From positions 49,067 to 113,066 of the IMG/VR virus record IMGVR_UViG_3300050821_001858: DNA of 64,000 bases. One strand, 5' to 3'. The notes below the pieces were generated by a model. That model saw nothing but the letters and a program-made list of their open reading frames with translations, searched no databases and was not told the origin of the DNA. The position numbers and the translations under genes are program-made. This DNA comes from a virus. Positions 7,291 to 54,349 of the stretch are shown here, piece by piece (position 1 is the stretch's first letter; each line of letters opens with the position of its first letter).

Positions 7291-7518
7291 GTGATGTTAC
7301 CAGATGGTTTAATGAATATAGATACTTCAGAGTATAATGGTAATATTGTCATAGAAATGATGATGAGTTTTTATTGGGGAGAAAATTTTCGAAATACACA
7401 TACTAATTTAAATCGAATTGGTTGGACAGAAATTCCGCTGAATATAATGTTTCCTCAAACATATAATGTTCGGGATTATCGACATTACGTTAATCGGTTT
7501 TTTTATAAGGATGTGTGA
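7291..7518 (+). CDS. Micro-ORF family hypothetical protein
   Basis: AT-rich short ORF with SD, coupled to the next ORF. Confidence 0.5.
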   Translation: MMLPDGLMNIDTSEYNGNIVIEMMMSFYWGENFRNTHTNLNRIGWTEIPLNIMFPQTYNVRDYRHYVNRFFYKDV

Positions 7519-7715
7519 TGTTTAGTAATGAAGATAGAGACTATAAAAATCCTCAGATGTTGACTTCTACTCCACATACAGTTGGAGCGAAATGTTTAGA
7601 AATTGATGTGATGAAGTCGTATAATATAAGTTTTCCTCCTATACAAAATATATGGGGAGGATTTTATCAAACTGTGTCTGTGATAAGATATCTTCGTCAG
7701 TTTTTTGATGAATAG
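7515..7715 (+). CDS. Micro-ORF family hypothetical protein
   Basis: Ends ...FFDE; stop overlaps the tRNA-Trp 5' end. Confidence 0.5.
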   Translation: MMFSNEDRDYKNPQMLTSTPHTVGAKCLEIDVMKSYNISFPPIQNIWGGFYQTVSVIRYLRQFFDE

Positions 7716-7787
7716 GTGTGAGCCGGTGGCGGTGCAGGAAACTCCAAATCTCCATTGCCGAGGGTTCGACTCCCTACACACCTGCCA
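7714..7787 (+). tRNA. tRNA-Trp(CCA), atypical
   Basis: aggtgtg/cacacct, ggaaa-ctCCAaa-tctcc, G73 and CCA. Confidence 0.8.
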
Positions 7788-7793
7788 GTTTAT

Positions 7794-7869
7794 TCCCCCG
7801 TAGCTCAGTTGGTAGAGCGAAATGCTGTTAACATTAGGGTCGGACGTTCGAGTCGTTCCGGGGGAGCCA
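7794..7869 (+). tRNA. tRNA-Asn(GTT)
   Basis: Canonical cloverleaf. Confidence 0.93.
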
Positions 7870-7886
7870 TTTTTATAGGACATTTT

Positions 7887-8087
7887 ATGGAGTATATACC
7901 TTATGTGGTTAGAATTATGATCAAACAATTTTGGCATGATCGATGGAAATTGCTCACTAAAGAATATGATTGGGACTACGAATATCTCTTTGGAGAGGGA
8001 TTAGATTTTCCGGCAATGCCATGGGATCAATTTGGTCAAGTTCATAATGTAATGATGAAAACAATTTCAGATAGTATATTTTCTTAG
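7887..8087 (+). CDS. Micro-ORF family hypothetical protein
   Basis: 66 aa, FP motif, ends IFS. Confidence 0.5.
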   Translation: MEYIPYVVRIMIKQFWHDRWKLLTKEYDWDYEYLFGEGLDFPAMPWDQFGQVHNVMMKTISDSIFS

Positions 8088-8091
8088 TTAT

Positions 8092-8166
8092 GGGACCTTC
8101 CTCTATCGGCTAGGAGAATCGCCTTTCAAGCGATCAAGACGGGTTCGATTCCCGTAGGTCCTACCA
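8092..8166 (+). tRNA. tRNA-Glu(TTC)
   Basis: atcgc-ctTTCaa-gcgat. Confidence 0.92.
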
Positions 8167-8172
8167 AAACAT

Positions 8173-8229: not shown

Positions 8230-8237
8230 TGAGTTAA

Positions 8238-8312: not shown

Positions 8313-8319
8313 GATTTAT

Positions 8320-8397: not shown

Positions 8398-8403
8398 ATT
8401 AAT

Positions 8404-8731: not shown

Positions 8732-8736
8732 GTTAA

Positions 8737-9863: not shown

Positions 9864-10892
9864 TTCGTCTTTGGACGGATTAGGGCAAGCCCCCCTGAAT
9901 GTGTGGGTATTAATATCAGAAAGTGTGTTATCACAAGGTAGTGTACACTACCTACCTACCGGGAGATAGGTACGCAAGCCTATCTCCCATTTAAAATTAT
10001 CAGATGTATTACAGATTGGGGGCATAGCCTCGTCAGGATAAGCCAGGGTGACTTGGTAAAAGCGGTAAGTCTTCCTACAGACCCGCACTATTAGCAATAA
10101 TAGCCCATCTATGCAGGTCCGGTCTTCCCCGTGAGGGGCAATCGATGGCATCGGTTGTAAAGCAGGACGGTTAGGTAAGGTCGAAAGATAGGTTCGAGGG
10201 TAACACTGTAGAGCCAAGTCCCGAAAGGACACCTTACGTTCAAACTAACTTACTGTGTATAGATAACGGATAGTGGGATACAGAGCATGAGACTTGCAAT
10301 CTAATGCGACCCGCAAAATGGAGGATAATGGCTGACGTTAACACAGTCGGACAGCATCCAAGAATTTGGTTTAGTAGCTCGCAAGGCGAAGGACAGTTGC
10401 CGTGTTGTATTTGGTACCTCAAAAGGGTATTGAGCAACAGTCGCAGCACGTCAAGTAGGTTTCCGATAATTGAAACTAGGTGTTTCAATCTCACTGTGAA
10501 TGAGATGTCGGTTGGTTCAAATCCAACTTATCATGCAGAAAAAGCAAAGTCTGCGACTGTGTTGAATGAAAGTGGTTTAATCCTATGAGTCCTTTGGACT
10601 AACATAGGGGATTTGTTACTCGCAAGGTGACAGTCTTTGATAGCGTGATTTGTCATAGAGGGTTAGCCCCCTCGAATAGCTCGCAAGGCTAGTGGTGAAA
10701 AGCATGTCGAATAGTTCAACATGAAAGAGGTACCGCCCCCTCTATAATCAAGGCAACCATGTGACGATACTGGATAGTTGTCCAGTGGAAATCGGGGAAC
10801 CTTTCTTAAATGTGCGCTCCGTCGCCGCATCCCTCGCAGGATGGAGGATAATCCCGTAAGTTGTCATGTAGAACCCGTATTCTCAGGGTTTT
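9864..10892 (+). ncRNA. Large structured ncRNA, GOLLD-like (5' boundary uncertain)
   Basis: About 1 kb with no credible ORF inside a tRNA array; many GNRA-capped hairpins (ctcgcaagg x3); gtgttgtatt..gtacctcaaaagggta..gcaac and terminal gtattctcaggg segments resemble GOLLD from memory. Confidence 0.65.
10463..10536 (+). tRNA. tRNA-His(GTG)-like domain embedded in the large ncRNA, no CCA
   Basis: gataa/ttatc, tctca-ctGTGaa-tgaga, gttgg-ttcaaat-ccaac. Confidence 0.65.
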
Positions 10893-11025
10893 ATCTTTTT
10901 ATCGCGTGGGTGTCCAATGTTCCGATGTGCAGGACACATCTGGCTTGACCATTGCGCGGAGTAATCCCAGGTCAAGGAATAACTGATTACCAGTCGGAAC
11001 AACCTTCCACGCGATAAGAGGATAA
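10891..11025 (+). ncRNA. Orphan branched structured RNA
   Basis: Nested stems ttatcgcgtgg/ccacgcgataa, tgttccga/tcggaaca, cttgacc/ggtcaag. Confidence 0.5.
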
Positions 11026-11429: not shown

Positions 11430-11528
11430 GCCTCGGTAGCTTAGAAAATAGAGCGCATCCCGTTTAATATTCATATGGTGGATATTGGGAGGGGTGAGAC
11501 GTAGGTGAAATACCTACCAGAGGCACCA
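11430..11528 (+). tRNA. Non-canonical tRNA-like RNA with greatly extended anticodon arm
   Basis: gcctcgg/cagaggc, nearly the same T-arm gtaggtgaaatacctac, ACCA. Confidence 0.65.
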
Positions 11529-12014: not shown

Positions 12015-12254
12015 ATGCTAAGCGGATATGGGTTGACAACGGCTCACATTTTGTATAGAATACCGGACTACCAGAACATCCTTCAAACGTTTGTCTGGCA
12101 AGAATTTGACTTTCATCCTGAGTATCCTCATTTGAGGAAGTTTCTTGTCTTCTGGCATAAGAAGATTGAAGGACCGATCTTTAAGGTCGAAGTTGCTCAT
12201 GCTGGTTATGAAAACAAGATTGAACTTGCAAAGGATATCTGGAAATTACAATGA
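12015..12254 (+). CDS. usg: Usg-family protein
   Basis: GYGLTTAHILYRIPD...LQTFVWQEFD..PEYP.L..FL.FW...IEGP...V.VAH. Confidence 0.85.
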   Translation: MLSGYGLTTAHILYRIPDYQNILQTFVWQEFDFHPEYPHLRKFLVFWHKKIEGPIFKVEVAHAGYENKIELAKDIWKLQ

Positions 12255-12469
12255 ATATGATTAAAGATATAATTGAAGAGTTGTATGGAAATATGTTCGA
12301 TGCAACTAATACATCAACAATTTATGATTGGCGTAGTGCTTTTGAATATTATAAAGTAATAGGATATGATGAAATGAGATATCTGGATATACGACGATCA
12401 GAATTTTCCCAGATGCCCTTAGGGTATATGTGGAATAATCACGATAAGATTTTTAGATCAGTGGAATAA
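12251..12469 (+). CDS. Micro-ORF family hypothetical protein
   Basis: ATGA-coupled, ends IFRSVE. Confidence 0.5.
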   Translation: MNMIKDIIEELYGNMFDATNTSTIYDWRSAFEYYKVIGYDEMRYLDIRRSEFSQMPLGYMWNNHDKIFRSVE

Positions 12470-18382: not shown

Positions 18383-18649
18383 ATGAACGACGTGTTTGTG
18401 AAAACTTTCATTATGGGACGTATGTTGGACAAGATAGTGGAATTTGTTCCATTGTCTGAAAGACAACTGCTATTGATTACTAATCAACCGCCCCCTAATT
18501 TTATTCAATCTAGGGCTCCTAATAAGGTTATATTTCTTTCTCAAGGAGGAAAGATAAACATCATACCGACTGGCATGATCCAACATTGGACCTGGGCTGG
18601 TTCGAGGGCTCTAAAAGCTTATACAACAAAATGGTTTGCGTATGAATGA
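18383..18649 (+). CDS. Hypothetical protein
   Basis: SD AAGGA. Confidence 0.5.
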   Translation: MNDVFVKTFIMGRMLDKIVEFVPLSERQLLLITNQPPPNFIQSRAPNKVIFLSQGGKINIIPTGMIQHWTWAGSRALKAYTTKWFAYE

Positions 18650-19337: not shown

Positions 19338-19506
19338 AATGGACACCGCAGTTCTTAATAAAGTTGATCAAGAATTTGAATATCGTAAGAAGCGTATCAT
19401 TGATGATTTGCGTCGTCGGGGTCGTTCCGAAGAAGATATTCAAGCCCATTTGAAATGGATGGAAGAAAACCGAGATTAATACGTATACTACCTCTGCGTA
19501 TTAAAG

Positions 19507-19865
19507 TTATAGACGGACTATCGCTGTACACCTATATGGGCTACCTTCGGGTACTGTACAGAGGAAAGTCGGGGCTGCACACGAAACCGTACAAGGTAAC
19601 ACCTTGGTATTCATAACTGCCACGCTTTTATGAATGACGATTAGAGCAACAGAAAATATGTATGCTTTATATACATGCCTAGATAGAGTGGGATAAACTT
19701 GTATATAAAGGCGTAGTGAAATTGGCAATCTCTACGGGCAGCAATCCCTAATAGGTCACTAGCCTTCGTGGGCGTTACGGTGACGGGTCGGGAGCTAGAG
19801 GGTAATCGCGAGGTTACTCCCAGATAAATGATAGTACTTGACAGAACCCCGCTTATAGTCTATAA
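19507..19865 (+). ncRNA. rnpB: RNase P RNA
   Basis: GAGGAAAGTC.GGGC, ACAGAAA, GTGAAA..GGCAA, AGATAAATG, ACAGAACCCCGCTTA; P1 ttatagac/gtctataa. Confidence 0.92.
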
Positions 19866-19948
19866 TGCTACTACCTTAGAATGACCATGATATTGAACGT
19901 AACAATTTGGGGCAGTTGGTCGAGCCCCCCTTGAATTAAAGGTGATAT

Positions 19949-20141: not shown

Positions 20142-20222
20142 GCACGCATAACCCCCTCGTCTTCGAAACGAGAGAAAGGTAACTGGATGTAAATGGGGGT
20201 TCGAATCCCTCTGCGTGCTCCA
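20142..20222 (+). tRNA. tRNA-Arg(TCG) without a conventional D-arm (D-loop relocated)
   Basis: gcacgca/tgcgtgc, ctcgt-ctTCGaa-acgag, T-arm, CCA. Confidence 0.75.
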
Positions 20223-23382: not shown

Positions 23383-23424
23383 GGTTTAAGGGGCATAAGT
23401 GCCCCTTTTCATTTGGAGATACTA

Positions 23425-23616
23425 ATGAATCCTTTAGTTTATTGGTATAAGAAAAACCTTGATAATAAAATCGTAAGTTTCCGTGATAGTTGGAGCGGGA
23501 TTTTTGTTCTTTCAATTCCCGATAATAGTTGGTCCCGGTGGCATCATTTTCTTCCTGTTTCAACTACTAGAATGTATACGTTTGCCTATCGACCCAATTC
23601 ATTGTTCGATGAATAA
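23425..23616 (+). CDS. Micro-ORF family hypothetical protein
   Basis: Ends LFDE. Confidence 0.5.
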   Translation: MNPLVYWYKKNLDNKIVSFRDSWSGIFVLSIPDNSWSRWHHFLPVSTTRMYTFAYRPNSLFDE

Positions 23617-23950: not shown

Positions 23951-24163
23951 ATGAACATATTCTTCAATATACGTCCATATACATCTAGACCTTATATGTT
24001 GGATTCTGATACACATTCGCCTAATCTAGAAAGATATATAAGTAGGTCAGCCATTAATTTTGTGAGGGAAGTTTTTCCTCATGCCATAAACACGTGTGGA
24101 ACATTACAACATTTCTATACGATTATGAATGACTATTTCACGTGTATATTAGCTGAAGGATGA
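23951..24163 (+). CDS. Micro-ORF family hypothetical protein
   Basis: NIRPYTSRP similar to the ORF at 45871. Confidence 0.5.
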   Translation: MNIFFNIRPYTSRPYMLDSDTHSPNLERYISRSAINFVREVFPHAINTCGTLQHFYTIMNDYFTCILAEG

Positions 24164-24360
24164 TCATGATACAATTAATGTATGTTGAATTGTATAAGTC
24201 TAAATTAATTCAATCAGGATCGATGTCTGGTCGTTTAGAACGTGAATTAGACATTGATACAACATCAATAAGACGTGTTTTTGACAATCATTATCGGGCT
24301 GAGATGCATTTTGTTGCTGATGTACTAGGTTTGTTTACCGATATATTCGCCCCCGACTAA
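24160..24360 (+). CDS. Micro-ORF family hypothetical protein
   Basis: ATGA-coupled, ends IFAPD. Confidence 0.5.
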   Translation: MIMIQLMYVELYKSKLIQSGSMSGRLERELDIDTTSIRRVFDNHYRAEMHFVADVLGLFTDIFAPD

Positions 24361-24377: not shown

Positions 24378-24406
24378 TTGACGAACCCCTAACTATCTGA
24401 TATACT
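24378..24406 (+). promoter_or_regulatory. Sigma70-type promoter for map
   Basis: TTGACG-17-TATACT just after a terminator hairpin. Confidence 0.65.
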
Positions 24407-24414: not shown

Positions 24415-25167
24415 ATGGAATATGAAGAAAAATTCCGGGGTATGGCTCATGCAGGTCAACACGCATCCCGGTGCCTCTCGTTATTAAAAGATTTGATTGT
24501 ACCGGGCTGGTCAACGGCTCGGATTGATGCGTTCGTCCATGATTATGCTAAGGCTAATGATTTAATATGTGCGACGAAGGGATATAAGGGTTTCCCTGCC
24601 TATTGTTGTACTTCCGTCAACCACATTGTCTGTCATGGTATACCATCCTTAAGTAAAATACTCAAAGATGGTGACTTATTAAAGGTTGATATCACATTCA
24701 TTAATAAGGATGGCTGGCATGGTGATACATGTCGGACATATTTCGTCGGTGACGCTTCAGTTAAAGCCACTCGGGTTGCTCAGGTCGCTAAGGAAGCCAT
24801 GGATAGAGCGATTGCTATTATTCGCCCCGGTGTGACGTTTGGTCATCTGGGGAAGGTATGTGAAGACTATGTTAACAGTCAAAGGATGGGTGTGGTCAAG
24901 GGATATTGTGGTCATGGAATAGGGCAAGAGTTTCATACTTTACCTCCTATTCTACATTATTATGATCCGAAGAGTTCCTATGCGCATCAACCTATTCTAG
25001 AAGGAATGACCTTTACAGTTGAACCAATGGTAACATTTGGTAAGTCGGATGTAAAGGAACTGTCTGATGGGTGGTCGGTAGTTACTAAAGACCGATCCCT
25101 GTCAGCACAATGGGAACACACAATAGGAGTAGTTGCAAATGGGCACCACATATTCACCGCCTACTAA
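24415..25167 (+). CDS. map: Methionine aminopeptidase type I
   Basis: CTSVNHIVCHGIP, DIT, GWHGDT, GHGIG..FH, FTVEPM, SAQWEHT. Confidence 0.96.
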   Translation: MEYEEKFRGMAHAGQHASRCLSLLKDLIVPGWSTARIDAFVHDYAKANDLICATKGYKGFPAYCCTSVNHIVCHGIPSLSKILKDGDLLKVDITFINKDGWHGDTCRTYFVGDASVKATRVAQVAKEAMDRAIAIIRPGVTFGHLGKVCEDYVNSQRMGVVKGYCGHGIGQEFHTLPPILHYYDPKSSYAHQPILEGMTFTVEPMVTFGKSDVKELSDGWSVVTKDRSLSAQWEHTIGVVANGHHIFTAY

Positions 25168-25606: not shown

Positions 25607-25852
25607 ATGAAAGTCGAATTGATTACTCGCACGGGTTGTATTCACTGCAACTCGACCAAACAGATTCTAAACAATCATAATATCGAATATACTGAAAAGG
25701 TTATTGGGGAGGATATTTCAAGAGAGGAAGTTAAGGCTCTCTATCCTGATGTAACCAAGGTTCCGATCATTTTGGTGAATTCTACTCGTGTCGAAGGACC
25801 ATCAGAGTTGAAGTTGCTTTTGGAGAAGGGTCAATTGGAGCAATTGCAATGA
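25607..25852 (+). CDS. Glutaredoxin
   Basis: CIHC, KVP.I. Confidence 0.88.
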   Translation: MKVELITRTGCIHCNSTKQILNNHNIEYTEKVIGEDISREEVKALYPDVTKVPIILVNSTRVEGPSELKLLLEKGQLEQLQ

Positions 25853-26124
25853 GCTATCTATCAGTTAATAAGAATGAACTTCAACGAGATTTGAAACTAG
25901 CTATTGCCGAGATTGCTTATCATAACGATGAAGGTGTGCCCCGTAAAGCTATTATTACGTTGCAGCGTGAATATATTCCAGAACATGATAGATATCGTAT
26001 TGATGAAATTGTTAATCAAGAAAGCAGGGGCGATGTTATTAAAGTTTGGGATGTTAATCATTCGGCTTGGCGTCTTATTCCTCTTGCGCATGTAGTATAT
26101 GTACAAATGAAAGATGGCTGGTGA
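25849..26124 (+). CDS. WYL-like/SH3-fold phage protein
   Basis: VWDV...AWR motif. Confidence 0.6.
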   Translation: MSYLSVNKNELQRDLKLAIAEIAYHNDEGVPRKAIITLQREYIPEHDRYRIDEIVNQESRGDVIKVWDVNHSAWRLIPLAHVVYVQMKDGW

Positions 26125-26302
26125 AAAAATTTATATGCATACATTTCCTCATTCGATCCAGGGACCCACACAACGTGTTTATGCTAAGTTGCGTGATCGA
26201 ATAATATGTTATAGTTGGATGTATACAGAACGATGGGATAACAACGTACTTAATTCTATTGTTGAAACTTTAGAACATCATGGGATTTTCGATGAAGAAT
26301 GA
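26114..26302 (+). CDS. Micro-ORF family hypothetical protein
   Basis: Ends IFDEE. Confidence 0.5.
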   Translation: MAGEKIYMHTFPHSIQGPTQRVYAKLRDRIICYSWMYTERWDNNVLNSIVETLEHHGIFDEE

Positions 26303-29424: not shown

Positions 29425-29426
29425 AA

Positions 29427-42162: not shown

Positions 42163-42450
42163 ATGATACTTCCTGAATCTTTAGTAGGTTATATTGCATC
42201 GGTCTATATTTGTCTAGCATCAGCGACCGTTTGTGATAATTCAAATGCTCTTTGGACAAATTGGGCTTATATGCGCCCTGATAATGGTATGGTCGAACTT
42301 TCGTCCCCTGAGAAATTGAAGCAGATTTGTATCGATACAATGAAAAAAAATATTCCGAAGATCAATGCTCCTTATTTTACCATGGACGGGTCGAAAGAGG
42401 GCGAGCGATTAAAAATTCGGATTGAATGCGAAAAAGGTGTTGACATCTGA
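42163..42450 (+). CDS. Cys-containing, probably secreted protein
   Basis: Hydrophobic N-terminus, 4 Cys. Confidence 0.6.
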   Translation: MILPESLVGYIASVYICLASATVCDNSNALWTNWAYMRPDNGMVELSSPEKLKQICIDTMKKNIPKINAPYFTMDGSKEGERLKIRIECEKGVDI

Positions 42451-42470
42451 CCCAAGATGCAGTATAAATA
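42440..42470 (+). promoter_or_regulatory. Combined sigma70 and T4-late promoter for tmRNA
   Basis: TTGACA-17-TATAAATA. Confidence 0.7.
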
Positions 42471-42475
42471 AGACA

Positions 42476-42770
42476 CTGGACGATTAGTTGATGGTTCAAC
42501 TAAACACGAAACACTCGGGGGCAGTACCCGATACCTCCACCAAAAGCACATACCCTACCCAAAGGGTTGTTGACAGGGTTGGAAGGATCAACGCACAGGA
42601 TGTGCTTTTGATGGGGGTAAAATAGGTTCGACTTCGTGTGGAATGGAATCGGATAGTCGGTCGGTATATAACTGTCGCATCAAACGACAACTTTGCTCGG
42701 GAACTCGCCCTCGCGGCGTAATTCCCTACGGAGTTCGGTAGCTTCCTTGGCAACAGAAAAGCTACCATTT
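42476..42770 (+). ncRNA. ssrA: Two-piece (permuted) tmRNA, tag ASNDNFARELALAA
   Basis: T-arm and ACCTCCACCA (ending 42542) precede an intervening hairpin and the GGGGGT...TTCGAC piece (42613); tag ORF 42677-42721. Confidence 0.93.
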
Positions 42771-42804
42771 CACCATGTGTTTAACGAAAATAGGAGTGTA
42801 TACA

Positions 42805-43311
42805 ATGAGTTTGAATTCGAATGTTCGTAAGTTTGACCCTGTAAAGGGTATGGCGTTTCAGGGCGACCTCGCCATCGTTCCGGTTCCGGCTTCCGTGAAG
42901 CTTAACACCGCCAACGAAATCCAGCCCAAGAACGGCTACCTTGTTCTTCTTGAGGGTGAGTTGACTGGTCATCACCATGCAATTCCGGTCCTTGAGCGTC
43001 CGACCACTCAGGTTGAGCCGAAGACCACCCCGAAGAAGACCAGCAAGACTGTTGAAAACCTTTTCGACCTTGCTACTCAGGCTCCGTCCACCGCCAAGAT
43101 GTATCGTGATGCAAACGTCGCATCAGAGATGCAGCGCCTCGGCATCCTTACCCGTACCGACCTGATTGTCGGTGTGCTTGAGGTTTCCGAAGGTAACGGT
43201 GTTATCCTTCGCCATCACGAGCATGATGGTATCCACCTTCCGAAGGGCACTTACTACATCGGTCGTCAGGTCGAAAGTGCTTTCAATGAAGAGCGCCGGG
43301 TCGCCGACTAA
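42805..43311 (+). CDS. Hypothetical protein, usual partner of DUF6745-type proteins
   Basis: QGD, EGELTGHHH, H.EH..I.LP.G.Y...RQ.E......RVAD. Confidence 0.8.
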   Translation: MSLNSNVRKFDPVKGMAFQGDLAIVPVPASVKLNTANEIQPKNGYLVLLEGELTGHHHAIPVLERPTTQVEPKTTPKKTSKTVENLFDLATQAPSTAKMYRDANVASEMQRLGILTRTDLIVGVLEVSEGNGVILRHHEHDGIHLPKGTYYIGRQVESAFNEERRVAD

Positions 43312-44535: not shown

Positions 44536-44562
44536 AAAAGGGGGGCTTAATTGCCCCCCTTT
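44536..44562 (+). terminator. Intrinsic terminator (bidirectional)
   Basis: aaaggggggc-ttaatt-gcccccttt. Confidence 0.7.
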
Positions 44563-44578
44563 GGTTAGGAGCAGGGAT

Positions 44579-44767
44579 ATGAACGCTATTATAACCAAAA
44601 TGAACAATCTTTATCATCGTGCCTACCATATGGTATTTCTTAGAACTAACATTGAAGAAAGAAAATATGTAACAGGCGAATTTATGCCCTTACGTGCTCC
44701 TTATGTAACTTTGTGTAATATGTGTCAAATTGAGGCTGACCGTTGTATAGCAAAGGCATTCAAATGA
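44579..44767 (+). CDS. Micro-ORF family hypothetical protein
   Basis: G...PLR, E.DR, AF shared with the next ORF. Confidence 0.5.
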   Translation: MNAIITKMNNLYHRAYHMVFLRTNIEERKYVTGEFMPLRAPYVTLCNMCQIEADRCIAKAFK

Positions 44768-44949
44768 AGCTAATGAATAGATATTATGATTTAGATGAAA
44801 CGCTACGTCATAAAACTCTTACGGCACAATGTGAATTAAAGGATGTATCGGTTCAATCAGGTATAGTTCCATTACGGAGATGGGGAATTGTCTTAAAACA
44901 GGATATGCTTTTGGCAATTATAAAGGAAAGTGACCGGGCATTCATATGA
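44764..44949 (+). CDS. Micro-ORF family hypothetical protein
   Basis: ATGA-coupled at both ends. Confidence 0.5.
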   Translation: MKLMNRYYDLDETLRHKTLTAQCELKDVSVQSGIVPLRRWGIVLKQDMLLAIIKESDRAFI

Positions 44950-45173
44950 TTGATATCAAAATAAAGTCTGAAACTTTTACCACCGACGTTGAAAAAATTG
45001 TCGCAGGCGGTAGTAAATATTTGGATGCTATTTTACGTTGGGCTGATGAAAAGGGGGTGGAAATGGAGTATATCTCATCCCTTATTGATGAGAATCCAGC
45101 TATTAGGCTTAAGCTTCAGAGGGAAGCTGAAGACCTACACTTCCTAAAGAAGGCTCGAAGGGTCCGAATCTAA
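44946..45173 (+). CDS. gp33: Late transcription coactivator gp33
   Basis: F..DVEKIV....YLDAI.....G.E.E.I..LI...KL..EAE.LHFL; gp33-gp59-gp32 synteny. Confidence 0.85.
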   Translation: MIDIKIKSETFTTDVEKIVAGGSKYLDAILRWADEKGVEMEYISSLIDENPAIRLKLQREAEDLHFLKKARRVRI

Positions 45174-45207: not shown

Positions 45208-45666
45208 GTGAGGATTGTATTTGAGGGAAAGCCAAAGAAAATCAGTTTAAAGAAATGTCGGCAAGCCCTGCACTTCTTTGCTTCGATATTATTTCCTCGT
45301 CGGATCAATACTCGGCTACCTCTGGTTGTAAAGTTTATACCCGGCTACCTTAAGAAAGAAGATTGTAAAGGAGCTACCGATTGGGTGGAAGCAGATGCCC
45401 CCTTGTTTTCTTTCGAATTAGATGATAATCTATCGTCTCGGGAAACCCTGAAGGTTATCGCTCACGAGTTAGTTCATGTTAAACAGATGCGCCTAGGGGA
45501 ATTGGTCGAGACTAATCATGCATCGAAGTTCCTTTATAAGAACAAATCGTTTGATATCGCCAAGATTGATTATTGGGACTTGCCTCATGAGATAGAGGCA
45601 TATGGTAGAGAAGTAGGTTTATATACTCGTTATCATGATATCGTTGTGAAAAAGAGAAAGAAATGA
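45208..45666 (+). CDS. HEXXH metallopeptidase-like protein
   Basis: AHELVHVKQ, YWDLPHEIEAY. Confidence 0.8.
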   Translation: MRIVFEGKPKKISLKKCRQALHFFASILFPRRINTRLPLVVKFIPGYLKKEDCKGATDWVEADAPLFSFELDDNLSSRETLKVIAHELVHVKQMRLGELVETNHASKFLYKNKSFDIAKIDYWDLPHEIEAYGREVGLYTRYHDIVVKKRKK

Positions 45667-45887
45667 ACCCTCTTAGATTTTATAGACGTGATACTGGTAG
45701 ATGGTACCAGATACAATTATACTTTCAAACTCATTTCATGACAGATGGGTGGCTATCCGATGTGGTTTATAATTATGCTGCCAGGGTGTTGACTAAAAGA
45801 CTTGTTGGACTTGACCCCCCTCGTCATTATACTATAGGTATGTTAAAACTAATGAGTGAGAGTATCTACAATGAAACATCCTCTTAA
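45663..45887 (+). CDS. Micro-ORF family hypothetical protein
   Basis: Similar to the next ORF (PL; W....VY; L..R). Confidence 0.5.
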   Translation: MNPLRFYRRDTGRWYQIQLYFQTHFMTDGWLSDVVYNYAARVLTKRLVGLDPPRHYTIGMLKLMSESIYNETSS

Positions 45888-46068
45888 CCTTAGAATTTTT
45901 ACTGAACGTCCTAGTATCGGTCTTGTATATAGAAGTGCTTATCTTTATCATGAATGGATGACGCAAAGTGTTTATTATGAAGTAAATAATATTCTCCGTA
46001 GAAGAGAATGGTTATTCGATATATATGACCAACTTAGAACGATAAACAGGCATCTTTATGCACGCTGA
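45871..46068 (+). CDS. Micro-ORF family hypothetical protein
   Basis: Overlaps the gp59 start. Confidence 0.5.
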   Translation: MKHPLNLRIFTERPSIGLVYRSAYLYHEWMTQSVYYEVNNILRRREWLFDIYDQLRTINRHLYAR

Positions 46069-46627
46069 TGAAGCGTTGAATCTTTACATTGCCCTGAAAC
46101 TTCATTTCTCATCAATGTCATATGACTATGATAGATTTGGGGGTGAGATTAAAAATCCAGTGTCGGTTGAATGTCGTCCCGACAAGCTGAATTTTATGAA
46201 GCTGGCGAAAAAGAAAGACGTGTTCGGGCGGCTGGTATCCAACCTGATCGTAAATCCGCGTGCACATATTTCCTCGATAATCGGCAAAGAAGGAGAGGAT
46301 ATCTATTTCGCTTGGAAGCGCCGGCATGAAAGTTTGAAGTATCATATCAAAGAAGAAATGGAGAAACTGAAGGAAATCTTCCCCGAAGGTTTTAAGGTTG
46401 TGCAGCATCAACACCCCGAAGCCTTTAAGATGTATATTCGAAAGGATGTGTCTATTGAAGCTTTAGCGATCCTGAACAATTTTACTAATATGTTTCGAGC
46501 ATGGGATAGAGATTTGAGAGATGATCCAGTGTGGGTAAACATGCGTATTCCACTTCTGAAATATGGGAAATGGTTACATTATGATCGACAGGAAATGAGT
46601 AAGATTGTGAAGGAAGCTTTGTTATGA
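46058..46627 (+). CDS. gp59: Helicase loader gp59
   Basis: Y.ALKLHF...YDY..FGG, R.D...F.KLA, KY..L. Confidence 0.88.
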   Translation: MHADEALNLYIALKLHFSSMSYDYDRFGGEIKNPVSVECRPDKLNFMKLAKKKDVFGRLVSNLIVNPRAHISSIIGKEGEDIYFAWKRRHESLKYHIKEEMEKLKEIFPEGFKVVQHQHPEAFKMYIRKDVSIEALAILNNFTNMFRAWDRDLRDDPVWVNMRIPLLKYGKWLHYDRQEMSKIVKEALL

Positions 46628-46818
46628 GGGGGATAGACAAGAGAGAGTATGAATTTATGCAGGGATGGATGGCTCGTACTCAACGATACTATCCATATAT
46701 GACCAGTTATGCTTTGTGGGAGGGACCACGGAACGGTGATCCTCTGATCGTTTTCCACCCCCACCCGCCGTTGCGCATCCAAACCTACATGGACCAGATT
46801 TTCGAAAAAAACCCTTGA
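46624..46818 (+). CDS. Micro-ORF family hypothetical protein
   Basis: Ends IFEKNP. Confidence 0.5.
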   Translation: MRGIDKREYEFMQGWMARTQRYYPYMTSYALWEGPRNGDPLIVFHPHPPLRIQTYMDQIFEKNP

Positions 46819-47895: not shown

Positions 47896-47956
47896 TTGTT
47901 GACAATCCCTCCGAGATCGCTTATATTGGCTCTACGTGGTAGATACAAAGGACAAG

Positions 47957-48976
47957 ATGATGAAAAAGGTGATTGTTATCATGGCTTTGCTGGCGTCTAC
48001 GTCAGCCTATGCTCATGGTCCCGGTGGTTTCGGCGGCTTCCATGGTGGAGGCGGCGGAGGTTTTGGAGGTTTTCATGGTGGAGGCTTTGGTGGTTTTCAT
48101 CTCGGTGGTGGTTTTGGAGGTTTCCATCCTGGCGGCGGTTTTCACCCTGGCGCGTGGAGTGGATGGAATCGCCCAGGTTGGGGAGGATGGCGCGGACCTG
48201 TAATCGGTGGTAGTTGGGGGCGTCCGTGGGGCGTTCCGTGGTCGGCTATTCCTTCCGCACCGGTTTATTCGTCCCCGCCTCCGGTTTATTATGATCCCCC
48301 GCCTCCCCCGCCTCCGGTTTATTATAATCCGCCGCCGCAGTACTATGCGCCGCCCCCGCCCCCTCCTTACTATAACGAGGGTCCGGGATTGTCTGATATT
48401 GGACCGGTGGTCGTTGATATTGTGAACGGGATTCTTGGTCCGATCCTGCAACAGTTTTTTGCACAGCCTCAATATGCGCCGCCTCCACCCCCTCCGGTGT
48501 ATGAGCCGCCCCCGCCCCCTGTTTATGCGCCCCCGCGTATAAATCCGTCTTATACGCGACCGCGTGTAGAAGCACCACCCCCGGCACGTCCCTCGGCGCC
48601 GCGCCCCCCTCGTGCACCTGCCCCGATTGAACCGTTGGTACAGAACGGTGTGATGAACGGGACAGTGACTTGTAAAACAAGTGATGGAGCAACCGTTGCA
48701 ATTGAACTTGCAATGACTGCTAAGACGCATCAACTTACCAAGTTTCACGTGACGTTTACACTTGCAAACGGGGACTTTAAAGATCGGACTGATCAGTACA
48801 ATAATATCAAGCTGCATAATGATAAGAACACGTTGTATTGGGAAGGTGATCGTGCTCATATGCATATGATCGGCACGTTTGCCCAGGATGGCACTTACAA
48901 CGAAGTTCTTATTGATGATGGTAAGCGTAAGATCATCACGAATAATGCCCGTTGTTCGGAACCAACAATGCAATGA
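47957..48976 (+). CDS. Secreted Gly-rich/Pro-rich protein with a C-terminal globular domain
   Basis: Signal peptide, GGFHG repeats, PPPVY repeats. Confidence 0.8.
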   Translation: MMKKVIVIMALLASTSAYAHGPGGFGGFHGGGGGGFGGFHGGGFGGFHLGGGFGGFHPGGGFHPGAWSGWNRPGWGGWRGPVIGGSWGRPWGVPWSAIPSAPVYSSPPPVYYDPPPPPPPVYYNPPPQYYAPPPPPPYYNEGPGLSDIGPVVVDIVNGILGPILQQFFAQPQYAPPPPPPVYEPPPPPVYAPPRINPSYTRPRVEAPPPARPSAPRPPRAPAPIEPLVQNGVMNGTVTCKTSDGATVAIELAMTAKTHQLTKFHVTFTLANGDFKDRTDQYNNIKLHNDKNTLYWEGDRAHMHMIGTFAQDGTYNEVLIDDGKRKIITNNARCSEPTMQ

Positions 48977-49176
48977 CACATGGAGATGTACATAAAGCGA
49001 TAATGAATGCCACTATTGACAAAATATGGCGTTTCCAAAATCAATTACCGGCTAATACAAAACTTAGTGAACTTCTTCGACGAGAAGTACAACGTACACC
49101 AACGTTTATGAATATTATTTTGCGAGATGCTAATATGGTTTCTAATATCGCAAGGGATATATTTAATGAAGACTGA
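48973..49176 (+). CDS. Micro-ORF family hypothetical protein
   Basis: Ends IFNED. Confidence 0.5.
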   Translation: MTHGDVHKAIMNATIDKIWRFQNQLPANTKLSELLRREVQRTPTFMNIILRDANMVSNIARDIFNED

Positions 49177-49964: not shown

Positions 49965-50423
49965 ATGAGTTTAATTGATCTTACAGGAAGGACTTTTGGG
50001 AATTGGATTGTTTTACGTAAAGGTAAAACGAAAAATCATGCTCATTGGATATGTAAATGTTCGTGTGGTGATGAGTATGAAGTAAGGAGTGATCATTTAA
50101 GAACGGGGAAATCAACTCAATGCACAAATTGTGCAATTCCCAAACATGGTATGTATGGAACTAGAACATATAAATCATGGTCTTCTATGATTGGTCGGTG
50201 TTTTAATGAAAATCATATTCGATATGAAGATTGGGGTGGGAGGGGAATTACTGTTTGTGATGAATGGTTAGACTTCAAGAATTTTTTTAAAGATATGGGG
50301 GTTCGTCCTGAAGGAATGTCATTGGATCGTAAAGATAATGATTTAGGTTATTATAAAGACAATTGTAAATGGTCAACCCCCAAAGAACAAGCAAAAAATA
50401 GAAGAAACAGATATGGCTCTTAA
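49965..50423 (+). CDS. HNH homing endonuclease-like protein
   Basis: DLTG.TFG, C.C.CG, GGRGITVC..W, SLDR.DND.GY...NC.W. Confidence 0.87.
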   Translation: MSLIDLTGRTFGNWIVLRKGKTKNHAHWICKCSCGDEYEVRSDHLRTGKSTQCTNCAIPKHGMYGTRTYKSWSSMIGRCFNENHIRYEDWGGRGITVCDEWLDFKNFFKDMGVRPEGMSLDRKDNDLGYYKDNCKWSTPKEQAKNRRNRYGS

Positions 50424-51096
50424 ATTTACTGATTTACTAGATACCATCAAGGCAGTTGCCTCATCGAGATTAGGAGCCATTTCAAACCAAGGCATGAATT
50501 GGATGCTCGAAAAGGTCGGGGAGTTAAGGCGAGCAGCCCTAGAAGCAACCTCTGACACTCGTTACACGCCATCACCTGAGAAGATCATAGACGAATTATC
50601 GACGGCAGTAAAAGACGATGATCTACTTAAAGGGGTCAAACAGGATCATCCCCTTAAGAAGGCATCGATGTTTAAGATCGGGGACCTGATTTTATTTCAA
50701 TACGATGCCAAGTTGAAAGACAAGCTGCCCTATTGGGATCGTTTCCCGGTTGTGTTTCCGATCAACTTCTATAAGGATGGGTTCCTAGGGATTAACCTTC
50801 ACTACCTGCCCCCTTTGTATCGGGCGCAATTGATGGATGCTCTCTATAACATACGTAACAATCAGAATATGGATGAAACAACGGTATTGAATGTCTCATA
50901 TGAAATCCTTAAAGGTGCTTCTCAATTCAAATCCTTTAAGCCATGTGTCAAAAGATATCTGTATCATCATATTACTTCGCATTGGCTTATTATTGCTCCT
51001 GAAGCTTGGGAGCCTGTTTTGTTTTTACCGATAGCTAGATTTCAAAAAGCAAATCAGCAACGTGTTTGGGATGATTCTTTGAAGAGGATACAGTGA
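50413..51096 (+). CDS. gp2: DNA end protector gp2
   Basis: YDAKLKDKLPYWDRFP, GINLHYLPP, PCVKRYL. Confidence 0.9.
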   Translation: MALKFTDLLDTIKAVASSRLGAISNQGMNWMLEKVGELRRAALEATSDTRYTPSPEKIIDELSTAVKDDDLLKGVKQDHPLKKASMFKIGDLILFQYDAKLKDKLPYWDRFPVVFPINFYKDGFLGINLHYLPPLYRAQLMDALYNIRNNQNMDETTVLNVSYEILKGASQFKSFKPCVKRYLYHHITSHWLIIAPEAWEPVLFLPIARFQKANQQRVWDDSLKRIQ

Positions 51097-51443
51097 TGAT
51101 TGGTGGATATATGATTGGTCCTAGACGTGTTCGTTATAATCCTGACGAAGAAGAGAGATTTGATGAGTGTATACTTGAGTATTACAAAGTACGAACTGAT
51201 CATACGTATGTAAGTACTGATTCTTATATAACCGGGACGCTTTTAGAATTGTATGAAGATCAAGTTCCAAAAGTCCAAATACAAAACCTTAAATTATGGA
51301 ATCGTTGGCCAATATGGAACTCATTCCGAATTCTAAGTTATTGGATGCTTAAAAATAATATCGATCCGTTATTTGTAACGAATAAGAATACGTATTTTGA
51401 AAGACTTAAATCGTGGATTTTGACCCTAAATAAGGAACAATGA
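51093..51443 (+). CDS. Hypothetical protein
   Basis: Coupled ORF. Confidence 0.5.
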   Translation: MMIGGYMIGPRRVRYNPDEEERFDECILEYYKVRTDHTYVSTDSYITGTLLELYEDQVPKVQIQNLKLWNRWPIWNSFRILSYWMLKNNIDPLFVTNKNTYFERLKSWILTLNKEQ

Positions 51444-52105
51444 GTGGCATTACTGGTTCCGATAGTCTTGTAGGGTTTAACATTGAGACGTTTAGAGGGT
51501 ATCTCAATAACGTTCAAGGTGTTCTAAAGCCTTCGAAGTTTATGATATATCTTACTCCCCCAGCGGCAATTGATCAAGGACCATTAACATCCTTTGGTCG
51601 GCAAGGGGCACAAGGTGTTCAATTTGCTTGTTCGGCTGCAATGCTTCCAGGCATGGAAGCTATTACATTCGACGCTCGACGTTATGGTTATGGAGCTATC
51701 CAAAAGCTTCCGTGGGCACCGGGATTTGGTCCCTGTCCTATGCAGATTATTACGGATGCTGCCGGTTTGGAGTGGTCATTCTTTAGACTATGGCTTTCGA
51801 AACTTGTTTCGTTTGATATGTCGCGAGGGATCAATAATCCTAATCCAGCCGGATATTACCCTTACGAGGTAGGATACCTACCTGATTTTGCCGTGAATGT
51901 TTCAGTCATTCAGTTTAACGACACCGGTCAAGAAGTTTTGGAAGTGACTTTACGTAATGCCTACCCTATTGGTTTGGGAGAAGTGAAGCTTGATTGGGGT
52001 GAAAACAATGCCGGTCGGTTTAACGTATTCTTTCATTTCCAAGATTGGAAGCAAGAGGACTTGACTATACAACAGCAATTTGGATTGGACCCTGAACAGG
52101 ACTGA
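51440..52105 (+). CDS. Tail-tube-like protein (gp54/gp19 family)
   Basis: C..A.LPG, FF..W, L.NAYP...G.V.L.W, F.F.DW. Confidence 0.75.
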   Translation: MSGITGSDSLVGFNIETFRGYLNNVQGVLKPSKFMIYLTPPAAIDQGPLTSFGRQGAQGVQFACSAAMLPGMEAITFDARRYGYGAIQKLPWAPGFGPCPMQIITDAAGLEWSFFRLWLSKLVSFDMSRGINNPNPAGYYPYEVGYLPDFAVNVSVIQFNDTGQEVLEVTLRNAYPIGLGEVKLDWGENNAGRFNVFFHFQDWKQEDLTIQQQFGLDPEQD

Positions 52106-52129
52106 CGCACTATATTTGATAAATACTTT

Positions 52130-52759
52130 ATGGAAAAATATGGATTTGTGTACCTTTGGTACGATAGGAAACATAAGAGATACTACGTTGGATCACATTG
52201 GGGGTCTGAAGATGATGGATACATTTGTTCATCAAATTGGATGCGTGATGCATATCGAAGACGCCGGGAGGATTTTAAACGACGAATTCTTTCTCGTGTT
52301 AATACAACACGACAAGAACTTTTAGATGAAGAACATAAATGGTTAAACCTTATAAAAATTGAGGAATTAGGAAAACGATATTATAATCTTCGTACATGGC
52401 ATCAAGGACATTGGACAACAATTGAAAATACATTATCAATAAGGGAAAAAATTTCAAAAGCTAACAAAGGACGAAAGTTACTTCCGCGTTCAGATGAGTA
52501 TAAGAAGAAAATTTCAAAAGCTAACAAAGGACGAAAACAAACTCCTGAAGCAATTGAAATTAATCGTCAAGCACAACTTAAATCGTATGAGAATGGACGC
52601 GTTGCTTTTATGAAAGGAAAAACATACGAAGAATTAGGTTATATTCATCCAATGCTTGGAAGAAAACATACCGAAGAAAGTAAACAGAAAATTAAAGAAG
52701 CCCGTGCTAAACAACCCCCTCCCCGATTAGGAAAAAAGAAAAATTATGCGTTATTTTGA
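52130..52759 (+). CDS. GIY-YIG homing endonuclease with NUMOD3-like repeats
   Basis: GFVY.W...YYVGSH.G..DDGY..SS; duplicated KISKANKGRK; HTEESKQKI. Confidence 0.87.
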   Translation: MEKYGFVYLWYDRKHKRYYVGSHWGSEDDGYICSSNWMRDAYRRRREDFKRRILSRVNTTRQELLDEEHKWLNLIKIEELGKRYYNLRTWHQGHWTTIENTLSIREKISKANKGRKLLPRSDEYKKKISKANKGRKQTPEAIEINRQAQLKSYENGRVAFMKGKTYEELGYIHPMLGRKHTEESKQKIKEARAKQPPPRLGKKKNYALF

Positions 52760-52985
52760 GATATATAATCAAAAAATAGAGAACATCAAGAAATCTTTGT
52801 ATAGGGAGACTTGGCGGTTAACCGCTACCAATCCCTTTTTTGTTTTCCACAACCCCCAAAATCTTCCAAATTTAGATTCATATTTAAGGAGATATCATGA
52901 CACTACCTACAATCGCAGTTTCGACATTCGAAGTGACGTTGCCTTCAAACCAAAAGAAACTCAAGCTTCGTTCCATGCTTACTAA
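52746..52985 (+). CDS. Micro-ORF family hypothetical protein
   Basis: Bridges the homing endonuclease and gp26. Confidence 0.4.
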   Translation: MRYFEIYNQKIENIKKSLYRETWRLTATNPFFVFHNPQNLPNLDSYLRRYHDTTYNRSFDIRSDVAFKPKETQASFHAY

Positions 52986-53619
52986 GGAGGAAAAGGTTCT
53001 CCTTATTGCAAAGGAATCCCGTGACCTCAATGACGTTATGGTCGCTGTGACTGATGTTATTCAAGCTTGTATTCAAGAGCCAAAGGATACTAAGGTAACA
53101 GACTGGCCAATCTTTGACGTGGAATATGCATTTGTTCGTTTGCGATCAATGTCCGTTTCACCGACGATTGATTGGGGATTGGTCGATCAAACCAATCAAA
53201 AGGAACATAAGTTCAAGATCGATTTGAACGATGTCAAGGTCGTTGGACTTGAAGGACGAGAAGCCCCGTTTGTTATTAATGTCGGTAACGGTATTAAGTT
53301 TACCCTGGATTATCCTAAGGTAGCATTGCATGGTGATAAGAAGTTTCTTGATTTACGAGGGGAACGATCTTTCAACGCGATGCTCGCCAAGTCGCTGGTA
53401 TCGATTTCACAAAACGAGATAACGACCAAGGCAAAGGATATTAAGCCCGACGAGCTAGAGGCTTGGGTTGACACCCTTCCTATTCAAGCATATAATGATG
53501 CCCGTGAATTCTTTCGTGACCTTCCCCATATCGAGTGGACAACTGAGTATACCGATGGGAATGGTGAAAAGGTTCCGGTGAGGTTGAGTACGCTCAATGA
53601 TTTTTTTATGTTTGTCTGA
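52897..53619 (+). CDS. gp26: Baseplate hub assembly protein gp26
   Basis: LPS..K....R....KEEK.LL.A.ES, FDVEY.F..LR..SV, ends L.DFF. Confidence 0.88.
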   Translation: MTLPTIAVSTFEVTLPSNQKKLKLRSMLTKEEKVLLIAKESRDLNDVMVAVTDVIQACIQEPKDTKVTDWPIFDVEYAFVRLRSMSVSPTIDWGLVDQTNQKEHKFKIDLNDVKVVGLEGREAPFVINVGNGIKFTLDYPKVALHGDKKFLDLRGERSFNAMLAKSLVSISQNEITTKAKDIKPDELEAWVDTLPIQAYNDAREFFRDLPHIEWTTEYTDGNGEKVPVRLSTLNDFFMFV

Positions 53620-53807
53620 GCCACAATAACCTTATAAACTACCTGCGTCTCAATCTTAATTTGATGCATCATCATAAATGGAGTTTGTCTGATATAGAAA
53701 ACATGACGCCATGGGAGCGTGATTTCTATGTTGACTTGATCCATGAACAGATGAAAGAATCTGAAGAAAAGAGCATTCAAGATGAGTTCAACAGTTTCTT
53801 ATCGTAA
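53601..53807 (+). CDS. gp51: gp51-like hub assembly catalyst, probably reached by -1 frameshift from gp26
   Basis: L.NY...N..LMHHHKWSLSDIENM.PWER..Y..L; frame opens exactly at the T7 run. Confidence 0.78.
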   Translation, partial: FFYVCLSHNNLINYLRLNLNLMHHHKWSLSDIENMTPWERDFYVDLIHEQMKESEEKSIQDEFNSFLS

Positions 53808-53976
53808 GGCAAAGTCTTTCATTTACAATTGGTTATATTTGCAGTTCTTCGCACCGTTGAAAGATTTGAAAGATGATTATAATGAAGTTTTGACTATGCC
53901 GACTGGATTGCCCAATCATCATCTTGGTTTACATCGTTATATGCAATTTACTATGATTAGTGTAATGGGGAAATAA
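53782..53976 (+). CDS. Micro-ORF family hypothetical protein
   Basis: Tandem paralog, ends SVMGK. Confidence 0.55.
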   Translation: MSSTVSYRKAKSFIYNWLYLQFFAPLKDLKDDYNEVLTMPTGLPNHHLGLHRYMQFTMISVMGK

Positions 53977-54164
53977 TGACATATAAGTATACCAAATATC
54001 CTAATCCGAATAAAAATACCAAAATTTGGGATTATACCTATTTAAAGATGTTGGGTGAAATGAGCCATCAATATATGCATGCATATCCTGATTGGGACCC
54101 CCTTGTTAATCCTTTAAGTATTATCACTTTACAGGGTGCTGTTAGTAGTGTGATGAGGAAATAA
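53976..54164 (+). CDS. Micro-ORF family hypothetical protein
   Basis: NKN.KIW..TY, ends SVMRK. Confidence 0.55.
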   Translation: MTYKYTKYPNPNKNTKIWDYTYLKMLGEMSHQYMHAYPDWDPLVNPLSIITLQGAVSSVMRK

Positions 54165-54166
54165 CA

Positions 54167-54349
54167 ATGGAATGTTATGGTCTTAATAAAAATATCCAAA
54201 TTTGGGGTGTTACCTATCGAGCATTCTACCTAAAAGTCAGTGGAGCTATATATAATAGGTATGAGAAACTCTTTCCTTGGGTTTATCCTTCTGTTTCATT
54301 AGATTATGATACTTTATCAGAAGCTATTAATAGTGTATTCAAACATTAA
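54167..54349 (+). CDS. Micro-ORF family hypothetical protein
   Basis: NKN.QIW..TY, ends SVFKH. Confidence 0.55.
   Translation: MECYGLNKNIQIWGVTYRAFYLKVSGAIYNRYEKLFPWVYPSVSLDYDTLSEAINSVFKH

Follow-up and report, generated by a model that had tools for sequence, protein, structure and literature searches.

Between positions 7291 and 54349 of the window studied here, a stretch of 64,000 nucleotides (nt) from IMG/VR virus record IMGVR_UViG_3300050821_001858, a large number of very small open reading frames (micro-ORFs) is packed between the conserved genes of a divergent T4-like myophage. Judged from their sequences, these micro-ORFs appear to be mostly unrelated, lineage-specific orphans, not one family, and the explanation which accounts best for the whole, and which we hold to be probable, is that they are heterogeneous hyperplastic-region ORFans that include a sub-class with a shared C-terminal motif. 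The window makes up the final 64 kb of a contig of 113,066 bp, and was analysed together with the upstream 49 kb (113 kb in all); positions refer to the window unless stated otherwise, and ORFs are named after their first position. The span 7291–54349 is an early/middle region with all its genes on the + strand, comprising a tRNA island, the small ORFs, sugar-pathway genes and the gp33-gp59-gp32 block. An earlier note on this DNA, made from the letters alone, had described the micro-ORFs as one rapidly diversifying family, spread by an unknown insertion mechanism.

Within this span, 96 ORFs on the + strand had a coding score in their own frame above that of the other five frames, with 54 of these being 45–100 amino acids (aa) in length and 41 being 55–80 aa, which confirmed the existence of the micro-ORFs and showed the earlier count of about 35 to be an undercount. 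They were indeed densely placed at the sites which had been singled out, at 28474–28689, 29200–29424, 44561/44743, 45663/45856 and 53782–54349. When the region was tiled, the own-frame coding score was the best in 59/69 micro-ORFs, and 81–90% of the ~20 kb free of larger genes and tRNAs was contained in + strand open frames with a length of 45 codons or more, compared to 33–36% in shuffled sequence. A maximum-coverage tiling with + strand ORFs left scarcely any sequence uncovered between 22.8 and 54.3 kb, and strain variants present in the protein collection differed by 1–4 substitutions with their frames intact. Because of these coding scores, the gap coverage above that of shuffles and the intact frames in strain variants, about 50 micro-ORFs of the span are likely to be real protein-coding genes. 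A few tiled ORFs were spurious and located within RNA genes: ORFs 10304 and 10778 (10304–10948, + strand, negative coding scores) in the GOLLD RNA and ORF 19455 in the RNase P RNA.

Overlaps of an upstream stop codon with a downstream start codon were frequent, as had been noticed before, and junction distances of −3 (ATGA), 0 (TAATG) and −10 nt dominated. The use of the longest ORF does overstate some of these overlaps, as the likely start codons of the gmhB-like gene and of tal are at ~28682 and 29427, both behind a good Shine-Dalgarno (SD) sequence. With these starts, the overlap of ORF 28474 with gmhB is 8 nt and that of ORF 29200 with tal is absent, and the product of gmhB has the usual short N-terminus ahead of its DRDG motif.

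None of the pairwise, profile or library tests joined the micro-ORFs into the single family proposed. The all-versus-all comparison, run by BLASTP on 69 micro-ORFs, returned one pair with E<0.01, ORFs 53976 and 54167 (53976–54164 and 54167–54349, E=6e-4), and an all-versus-all phmmer search with 753 six-frame ORFs of the genome gave this pair again with E~4e-4, with spurious antisense ORFs reaching like values. A hidden Markov model (HMM) made from this pair detected neither ORF 53782 nor any other micro-ORF above decoys. Smith-Waterman z-scores of 36 adjacent pairs were all at background except for 53976/54167 (z=9.6), the sole demonstrable paralogue pair, and tandem duplication was rejected as origin of the other neighbouring micro-ORFs. 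The local paralogy reported in the earlier note therefore held for 53976/54167, and did not hold for 44561/44743 with its "PLRxWG" (z=−0.03), for 45663/45856 (z=2.2) or for ORF 53782. In a scan of 64 micro-ORFs with Pfam and PHROGs no family was matched by more than one member, and the known families were represented by singletons: gp33 (44946), glutaredoxin (25607), a Usg-like protein (12015), WYL_2 (25849) and a coiled coil (37794). The ORFs to which the earlier note had given most prominence lacked a match in PHROGs even at E≤1. For ORF 28474 no relative was found in 5.8e9 clusters nor in an exhaustive HMMER scan of 1.84e9 representatives, while for ORF 26114 the sole other database cluster was a 98%-identical strain variant, and the ESM Atlas gave no usable look-alike.

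The feature that recurs is the C-terminal end, which had been described as hydrophobic-aromatic-charged. We defined this tail as [ILVMFWY][FY].{0,3}[DE] located in the C-terminal 8 residues, with the internal rate as expectation, and passed the controls through the same pipeline. The tail was present in 15/59 small ORFs of the window (internal rate 6.5%), in 8/29 small ORFs of the upstream 49 kb, which served as hold-out (3.2%, p=3e-6), and in 20/86 small ORFs of the whole 113 kb (5.7% expected, p=6e-8). It was not enriched in the large ORFs (>110 aa) of the 113 kb (6/98), nor in the small ORFs of the control phages P-SSM2 (6/93) and Cr30 (5/92), and was marginal in the small ORFs of T4 (10/76, 13% versus 7%) and in 57 related metagenomic loci pooled (13/230), giving a Fisher p of 2e-5 for this phage versus the pooled controls. 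The late proline that had been noted as well was found at position −28 to −16 in 46/86 small ORFs, compared to 34±4 in shuffles (z=3.0), with no excess in the controls. The richness in Tyr, Trp, Arg and Ile applied mainly to the tail-bearing subset, which has more Phe/Tyr/Trp, Ile, Arg and Met and fewer Ala, Gly, Lys and Val residues, and in an aromatic-rich, Ala/Gly-poor class of small ORFs the tail was present in 11/19, versus 9/67 of the rest (p=2e-4). Statistically, the recurring type of ORF, which is aromatic-rich with a late proline and a Phe-acidic end, is therefore real. The tails SLFGE, GIFDE and VFDRRD are carried by three small minus-strand ORFs that follow one another upstream of the window (contig positions 7957–8633), and these three have no mutual similarity.

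Such a signature could be what is left of one ancient paralogous family, dispersed over the genome and diverged until only the composition, the late proline and the Phe-acidic anchor remained. The three features co-occur and are specific to this phage, tail-bearing ORFs are often found in runs (7291/7515 and the three minus-strand ORFs upstream of the window), and the tandem pair 53976/54167 is a proven duplication, all of which would suit common descent. However, when the last 7 residues of the tail-bearing ORFs were kept fixed, the preceding 29 residues performed no better than their own shuffles in a leave-one-out HMM (p=0.27), nor did they in an ungapped leave-one-out position-specific scoring matrix (p=0.30), so that neither gapped nor ungapped comparison with tail-preserving shuffles gave similarity beyond the last ~6 residues. 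Adjacent tail-bearing ORFs were no more alike than random pairs, as for 7291–7518 (+ strand, ending FFYKDV) and 7515–7715 (+ strand, ending FFDE) with z=0.13, and the late proline and tail were not significantly associated (14/20 with versus 32/66 without tail, p=0.13). Single-sequence AlphaFold2 models predict a helical hairpin for ORF 28474 (predicted local distance difference test (pLDDT) score 74) and three helices for ORF 48952 (48952–49176, + strand, ending DIFNED), with the last helix running from just after the proline to the C-terminal end (pLDDT 68). Both models are all-alpha, with the late proline starting a terminal helix of 23–25 residues that reaches to 1–2 residues from the C-terminus, yet their predicted topologies differ, which may speak against one family. 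Since nothing detectable is shared beyond the last ~6 residues, the tail is better viewed as a short shared motif rather than as homology, and descent from one ancient family seems improbable.

The ending may also have no function in the protein, and be a by-product of constraints at gene junctions (SD, ATG, terminators and promoters), with the Phe residues being due to chance or to an RNA signal anchored at the stop codon. The phage makes strong use of SD sequences, with a G-rich stretch at −11 to −8 in 31/53 confident genes versus 17% background, and the last 2–3 codons of most tail-bearing ORFs contain GGAG, GAGG or AGGA, or the downstream ATG. Tails encode the SD of the next gene as GGA GAA (Gly-Glu), AAG GAG (Lys-Glu) or GAG GA (Arg-Gly), or its ATG in the +2 frame as xAT Gxx, read as Asp, Asn or Tyr followed by Glu, Asp or Ala. 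Examples of such dual-coded tails are ORFs 7291, 25133, 45856, 53782 and 53976, and also, all on the + strand, ORF 18383 (18383–18649, ending WFAYE, with the ATG of the next gene inside the last codons), ORF 26114 (26114–26302, ending GIFDEE, with GGGA plus the next ATG), ORF 26703 (26703–26921, ending KFYDK and overlapping the phosphoesterase gene, which starts at 26911), ORF 28474 (ending IFARDE, located between the gmhA-like and gmhB-like genes, with the likely true gmhB start codon in its tail), ORF 29200 (ending RRG, located between the gmhB-like gene and tal, and encoding the GAGGA SD of the likely tal start) and ORF 33929 (33929–34168, ending IFKEK, with the KEK codons forming the AAGGAG SD of gene 34168 at a TAATG junction). 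Two further tails on the + strand coincide with transcription signals: the last codons of ORF 24160 (24160–24360, ending IFAPD) constitute the 5′ arm of the stem of an intrinsic terminator, with a promoter behind it, and the tail of ORF 46624 (46624–46818, ending IFEKNP, between gp59 and gp32) overlaps a hairpin and the −35 box of the gp32 promoter. For the most part, the charged residues of the tail are thus dual-coded with an SD or ATG of the next gene; the Phe is not.

Such dual coding falls short of a full explanation, because large genes with the same junction geometry had neither acidic nor aromatic enrichment, SD and ATG were not generally preceded by a T-run, the position of the TTY codon relative to the downstream ATG varied from −4 to −15, the excess of Phe codons at codon positions −4/−3 was confined to frame 0 (21 versus 7.6 expected, p=5e-5; frames 1 and 2 at expectation), and the tail persisted without a coupled gene. 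The latter was the case in 7/20 tail-bearing ORFs, and the tail was enriched in the ORFs lacking a coupled downstream gene (7/42, p=0.009). Among those on the + strand are ORF 12251 (12251–12469, ending IFRSVE), which is followed by tRNA-Lys and of which a one-substitution strain variant keeps both frame and tail, and ORF 23413 (23413–23616, ending SLFDE), which has a weak coding score. T4 likewise uses SD sequences with overlaps, yet shows only the marginal tail frequency given above. A T-run as part of the ribosome-binding region was rejected, as such a run is not generally present upstream of SD or ATG, and a recurrent DNA element at the ORF ends was rejected as well, with TTYGATGAATAR occurring only 4 times (0.2 expected) and looser versions being near expectation. 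Given the frame-specific Phe excess and the tails without a coupled gene, the Phe is best read as a feature at the protein level, and an ending that is devoid of function in the protein is unlikely. If the tail did turn out to be junction dual coding only, it would serve as a caution against over-reading shared termini in overlapping genes.

We favour the interpretation that the span is the 'hyperplastic' part of the genome of a divergent T4-like myophage, with early/middle genes on a single strand and with the micro-ORFs being a mixed collection. A handful would come from separate known families (gp33, glutaredoxin, Usg-like and WYL_2) and one pair from tandem duplication, while the remainder would be lineage-specific ORFans, placed between conserved core genes by insertion and subject to fast turnover. 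Transcription would take place in long + strand units from sigma-70-like promoters, of which near-consensus versions are located on the + strand at 24378, 25557, 28920, 37991, 46815, 47899 and 53468, with few terminators on this strand (23047, 23388, 24349 and 43330), and translation would proceed through ATGA/TAATG-type overlaps, as it would for the large genes. The AT-rich codon usage with many ATA, AGR and TTA codons would fit weakly adapted accessory genes, served by the large tRNA set of the phage. The sub-class may consist of ~13–20 ORFs in the 113 kb (~12–15 in the window), which are aromatic-rich and have a predicted post-proline terminal helix and a hydrophobic-Phe/Tyr-x(0–3)-Asp/Glu end, and this ending may be a shared C-terminal docking or packing motif on unrelated small early proteins, and not the trace of one family.

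Several points speak against this interpretation. A stop-anchored RNA signal would be frame-specific too, the two AlphaFold2 models are single-sequence predictions of modest confidence, and single sequences leave room for an extremely diverged common ancestry. Furthermore, the definition of the tail motif originally came from the very data in which it was counted, which is mitigated and not removed by the hold-out, the four controls and an independently derived motif described below. Small ORFans make up much of the 'dark matter' of phages, and are usually taken as unrelated one-offs, which fits most of the ORFs here; the idea of a single family should be dropped, and what remains is a C-terminal signature on about one-fifth of the small ORFs, which is robust in statistical terms, phage-specific and frame-specific.

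The earlier note had further suggested that micro-ORFs are translational-coupling relays, passing ribosomes to the downstream gene with ATA, AGR and TTA codons tying expression to the phage tRNAs. The predicted excess of rare codons was present in small versus large ORFs of the 113 kb, where AGG (1.83x), ATA (1.80x, p=2e-9), AGA (1.64x) and TTA (1.37x) were the most over-used synonymous codons, above the general shift towards A at third positions (median of A-ending codons 1.12); AGT was also over-used (1.56x), and CGA, which had been included in the prediction, was not (1.02x). ORF 28474, which had been highlighted for such codons, has 9 ATA, AGG, AGA, CGA or TTA codons in 71, and G+C content at third codon positions in the window was 0.32 for small and 0.37 for large ORFs. 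Rare-codon usage with few G or C at third positions is the usual signature of weakly adapted or weakly expressed accessory genes. Relays are very improbable despite the frequent overlapping junctions, this codon excess and the presence of tRNA-Leu(UAA), tRNA-Arg(CCU) and two CAU tRNAs, one of which might read Ile codons, as coupled junctions were equally common in large genes (51%) and in small ORFs without the tail (47%, versus 65% with the tail), many micro-ORFs are followed by a tRNA, a terminator or a gap, CGA shows no excess, and 60–80 codons that have a frame-specific tail and an Asp/Glu/Asn content like that of proteins exceed the needs of a relay.

Insertion between core genes was examined in related phages. 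A search of metagenome contigs with gp32 yielded 80 loci, none of them with an identity above 48%; these loci are fit for synteny and as control and too distant for assessing micro-ORF conservation. In most of the 52 related loci that contain gp33, gp59 and gp32, the gp33 and gp59 genes overlap by 4 nt, whereas here the 152-aa ORF 45208 and the micro-ORFs 45663 (45663–45887) and 45856 (45856–46068) intervene (45208–46068, + strand). As gp33 abuts gp59 in the relatives, these three ORFs are insertions, and the comparison supplied the empty sites that had been anticipated. ORF 45208 has a homologue in only 2 related loci and the two micro-ORFs in none, and only 6/93 small ORFs had a homologue in the 824 kb of related loci. 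The two micro-ORFs upstream of gp33 (44561–44767 and 44743–44949, + strand) had no PHROG match with E≤1 and no homologue in the 80 loci. The gp33 gene itself (44946–45173, + strand), coding for the late-transcription coactivator, is small but core (PF16805, E=1.7e-13), and has 58–59 homologues in the related loci.

A relative with 97% and 96% identical gp32 and gp59 proteins was present on a 188,295-bp contig, where cluster mates at the 90% level were found for four small ORFs (25607, 25849, 34168 and 17831), and for none of 18 others, nor for gp33 and the Usg-like gene. As gp33 and the Usg-like gene also lack such a mate, this is no more than suggestive of small-ORF turnover between close relatives. 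The spread by insertion that had been proposed was thus supported insofar as it concerns insertion between core genes, but no repeated DNA able to mediate it was found. The direct-repeat families consisted of coding repeats, arms of tRNAs and a single short motif with TTGACA, located mostly after tRNAs, and none of them flanks the micro-ORFs of 25–54 kb. In the absence of such flanking repeats, PeSL-type (stem-loop/promoter) cassettes are not evident, and only 2–3 isolated composites of a stem-loop plus promoter were seen, including 24349/24378 and 46812/46815. Insertion combined with few homologues is ordinary behaviour for a T4-type hyperplastic region. A ~21-nt motif consisting of CCA, a T-run and TTGACAA is present in four copies, at 6471, 14849 and 20924 in the tRNA island and at 28906 inside gmhB, and is likely to be an early-promoter −35 module that is reused through the tRNA island.

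The small genes of known families are all on the + strand. The Usg-like protein (12015–12254; PF06233, E=3e-30) is unrelated to the other small proteins, and the adjacent glutaredoxin (25607–25852) and WYL_2/Sm-like (25849–26124) genes have homologues in related loci, with the latter protein being 95.6% identical on the 188,295-bp relative. Proteins of the window are also present on a 183,425-bp contig, and those with Pfam matches include gp59, transaldolase, SIS/GmhA-like, HAD/GmhB-like, GHMP kinase, cytidylyltransferase and glycosyltransferase proteins. The upstream 49 kb encodes gp47, gp46, gp45, gp44, RegA, gp43, UvsX and gp41, with gp45 matching T4 gp45 (E=1e-11) and PHROG 223 (E=1e-36). 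The gp32 protein is at most 47–48% identical to any match in the phage or metagenome collections, with the nearest matches being from cyanophages, Pelagibacter phage HTVC008M and Caulobacter phage Cr30. A megablast search with 27–47 kb of the window gave no match in phages, and no close relative was found with gp59 and gp43 in viral contigs, nor with gp43 in genome contigs.

ARAGORN predicted 30 tRNA genes in the span, to which Rfam added three other RNAs: a full-length GOLLD RNA within the tRNA island (10395–10889; RF02032, 174 bits), a full-length phage-encoded RNase P RNA of bacterial class A (19505–19871; RF00010, 168 bits), and a permuted tmRNA of the alpha-proteobacterial type (42436–42812; RF01849, 92 bits; RF04321, 69 bits), with a tag predicted by ARAGORN to end in ...ELALAA. 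The type of tmRNA hints at a possible host other than a cyanobacterium. Rfam tRNA matches at 6498–6569, 11430–11525 and 20142–20219 were not called by ARAGORN, and may be unusual tRNAs.

Several neighbouring genes deserve mention. A sugar-nucleotide cluster (26911–33161) contains genes for a phosphoesterase, cytidylyltransferase, SIS/GmhA-like protein, HAD/GmhB-like protein, transaldolase, GT1 glycosyltransferase and GHMP kinase, and a tblastn search with the GmhA-like protein gave no match in 50,697 phage records. The phage also encodes an M24 metallopeptidase resembling methionine aminopeptidase (24415–25167; PF00557, E=7e-43). Just 3′ of gp32, an ORF of 346 aa (47936–48976) contains tandem repeats of the Gly-Phe-Gly and Pro-Pro-x-Tyr types (repeat families D5, D6 and D8). 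Strong paralogues of ORFs 49965–50423 and 52130–52759 (E=7e-26 and 8e-44, respectively) are located in the upstream 49 kb, and the second of these two ORFs has a NUMOD3 motif, which makes both likely to be mobile genes of the homing-endonuclease type that interrupt the baseplate block. The block at 50413–53807 (p50413, p51440, p52897 and the 48-aa ORF 53661) shares its strand with gp32 in this phage, and is inverted with respect to gp32 in all related loci in which it is present.

Three known systems can be compared with the micro-ORFs. They share with translationally coupled phage operons of the ATGA/TAATG type the overlaps of −3, 0 and −10 nt and the SD sequence inside the upstream coding end, with the difference that coupling in this phage is genome-wide and not specific to the micro-ORFs. 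The coupling that underlay the relay proposal was real in this sense, although the proposal itself was weakened by the large genes having the same junctions and by the tails on uncoupled ORFs.

The second comparison is with the DNA polymerase gp43 of T4 and RB69, of which the C-terminal hydrophobic-Phe tail binds the gp45 sliding clamp (compare PDB 1B8H). The gp43 proteins end in FLFG (T4), SFFS (P-SSM2), SLFD (Cr30) and, in this phage, LFYED plus three residues, and the ends of small ORFs resemble these in having a hydrophobic residue and Phe followed by 1–3 residues. A motif derived from gp43, [ILFMV]F followed by 1–3 residues to the end, matched 13/86 small ORFs (4.2% expected, p=5.5e-5), with examples being SLFDE, SLFGE, GIFDE and IFNED, compared to 3/76 in T4, 0/92 in Cr30 and 2/93 in P-SSM2 (pooled Fisher p=2e-5). 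The micro-ORF tails differ from the gp43 tail in ending a predicted helix instead of a flexible linker and in usually having one or two extra acidic residues, and the gp33 of the phage itself lacks such an end. In related loci three gp33 variants end in FFE, LFE or SLF, and most end in KLPI; here gp33 ends in ...HFLKKARRVRI whereas nearly all relatives have ...K/R-L-P-I/L, suggesting that its presumed clamp-binding tail has changed in the lineage of this phage. A predicted complex of three gp45 copies with ORF 26114 scored 0.15 with a mark of 0.34, and carries no weight either way. The motif QL[SD]LF for the host beta clamp also resembles the tail. It is conceivable, if doubtful, that a dozen or more unrelated early micro-proteins mimic the polymerase clamp tail in order to dock on gp45 or the host beta clamp, with the tail having arisen by convergence or having been passed between ORFans, and the resemblance to gp43 may be taken as a lead only. 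If the tail were a true docking motif, it would show how a phage can connect many micro-proteins of recent acquisition to a single hub, as a 'tool-belt' of accessory or regulatory factors attached via one short linear motif.

The closest likeness is to the hyperplastic-region ORFans of T4-like phages (Comeau, Arbiol & Krisch, PMC4122927; Arbiol et al., PMC2839356), the cyanophage 'ORFanage' (PMC4503421) and T4 ORFan 55.2 (PMC4396842), with PeSL cassettes being a known shuffling device of such regions (PMC4122927). The micro-ORFs differ from these ORFans in that most abut or overlap without intergenic space, and in that no conserved, repeated PeSL cassette flanks them. As in T4-like phages, they are small, mostly early and on the same strand, are located between conserved core blocks, may differ from one close relative to another and are missing from distant phages; in T4, individual members act on host proteins. 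We know of no report of a C-terminal tail shared among hyperplastic-region ORFans, and the tail described here is not expected of ordinary genes of such regions and offers a concrete experimental handle on them.

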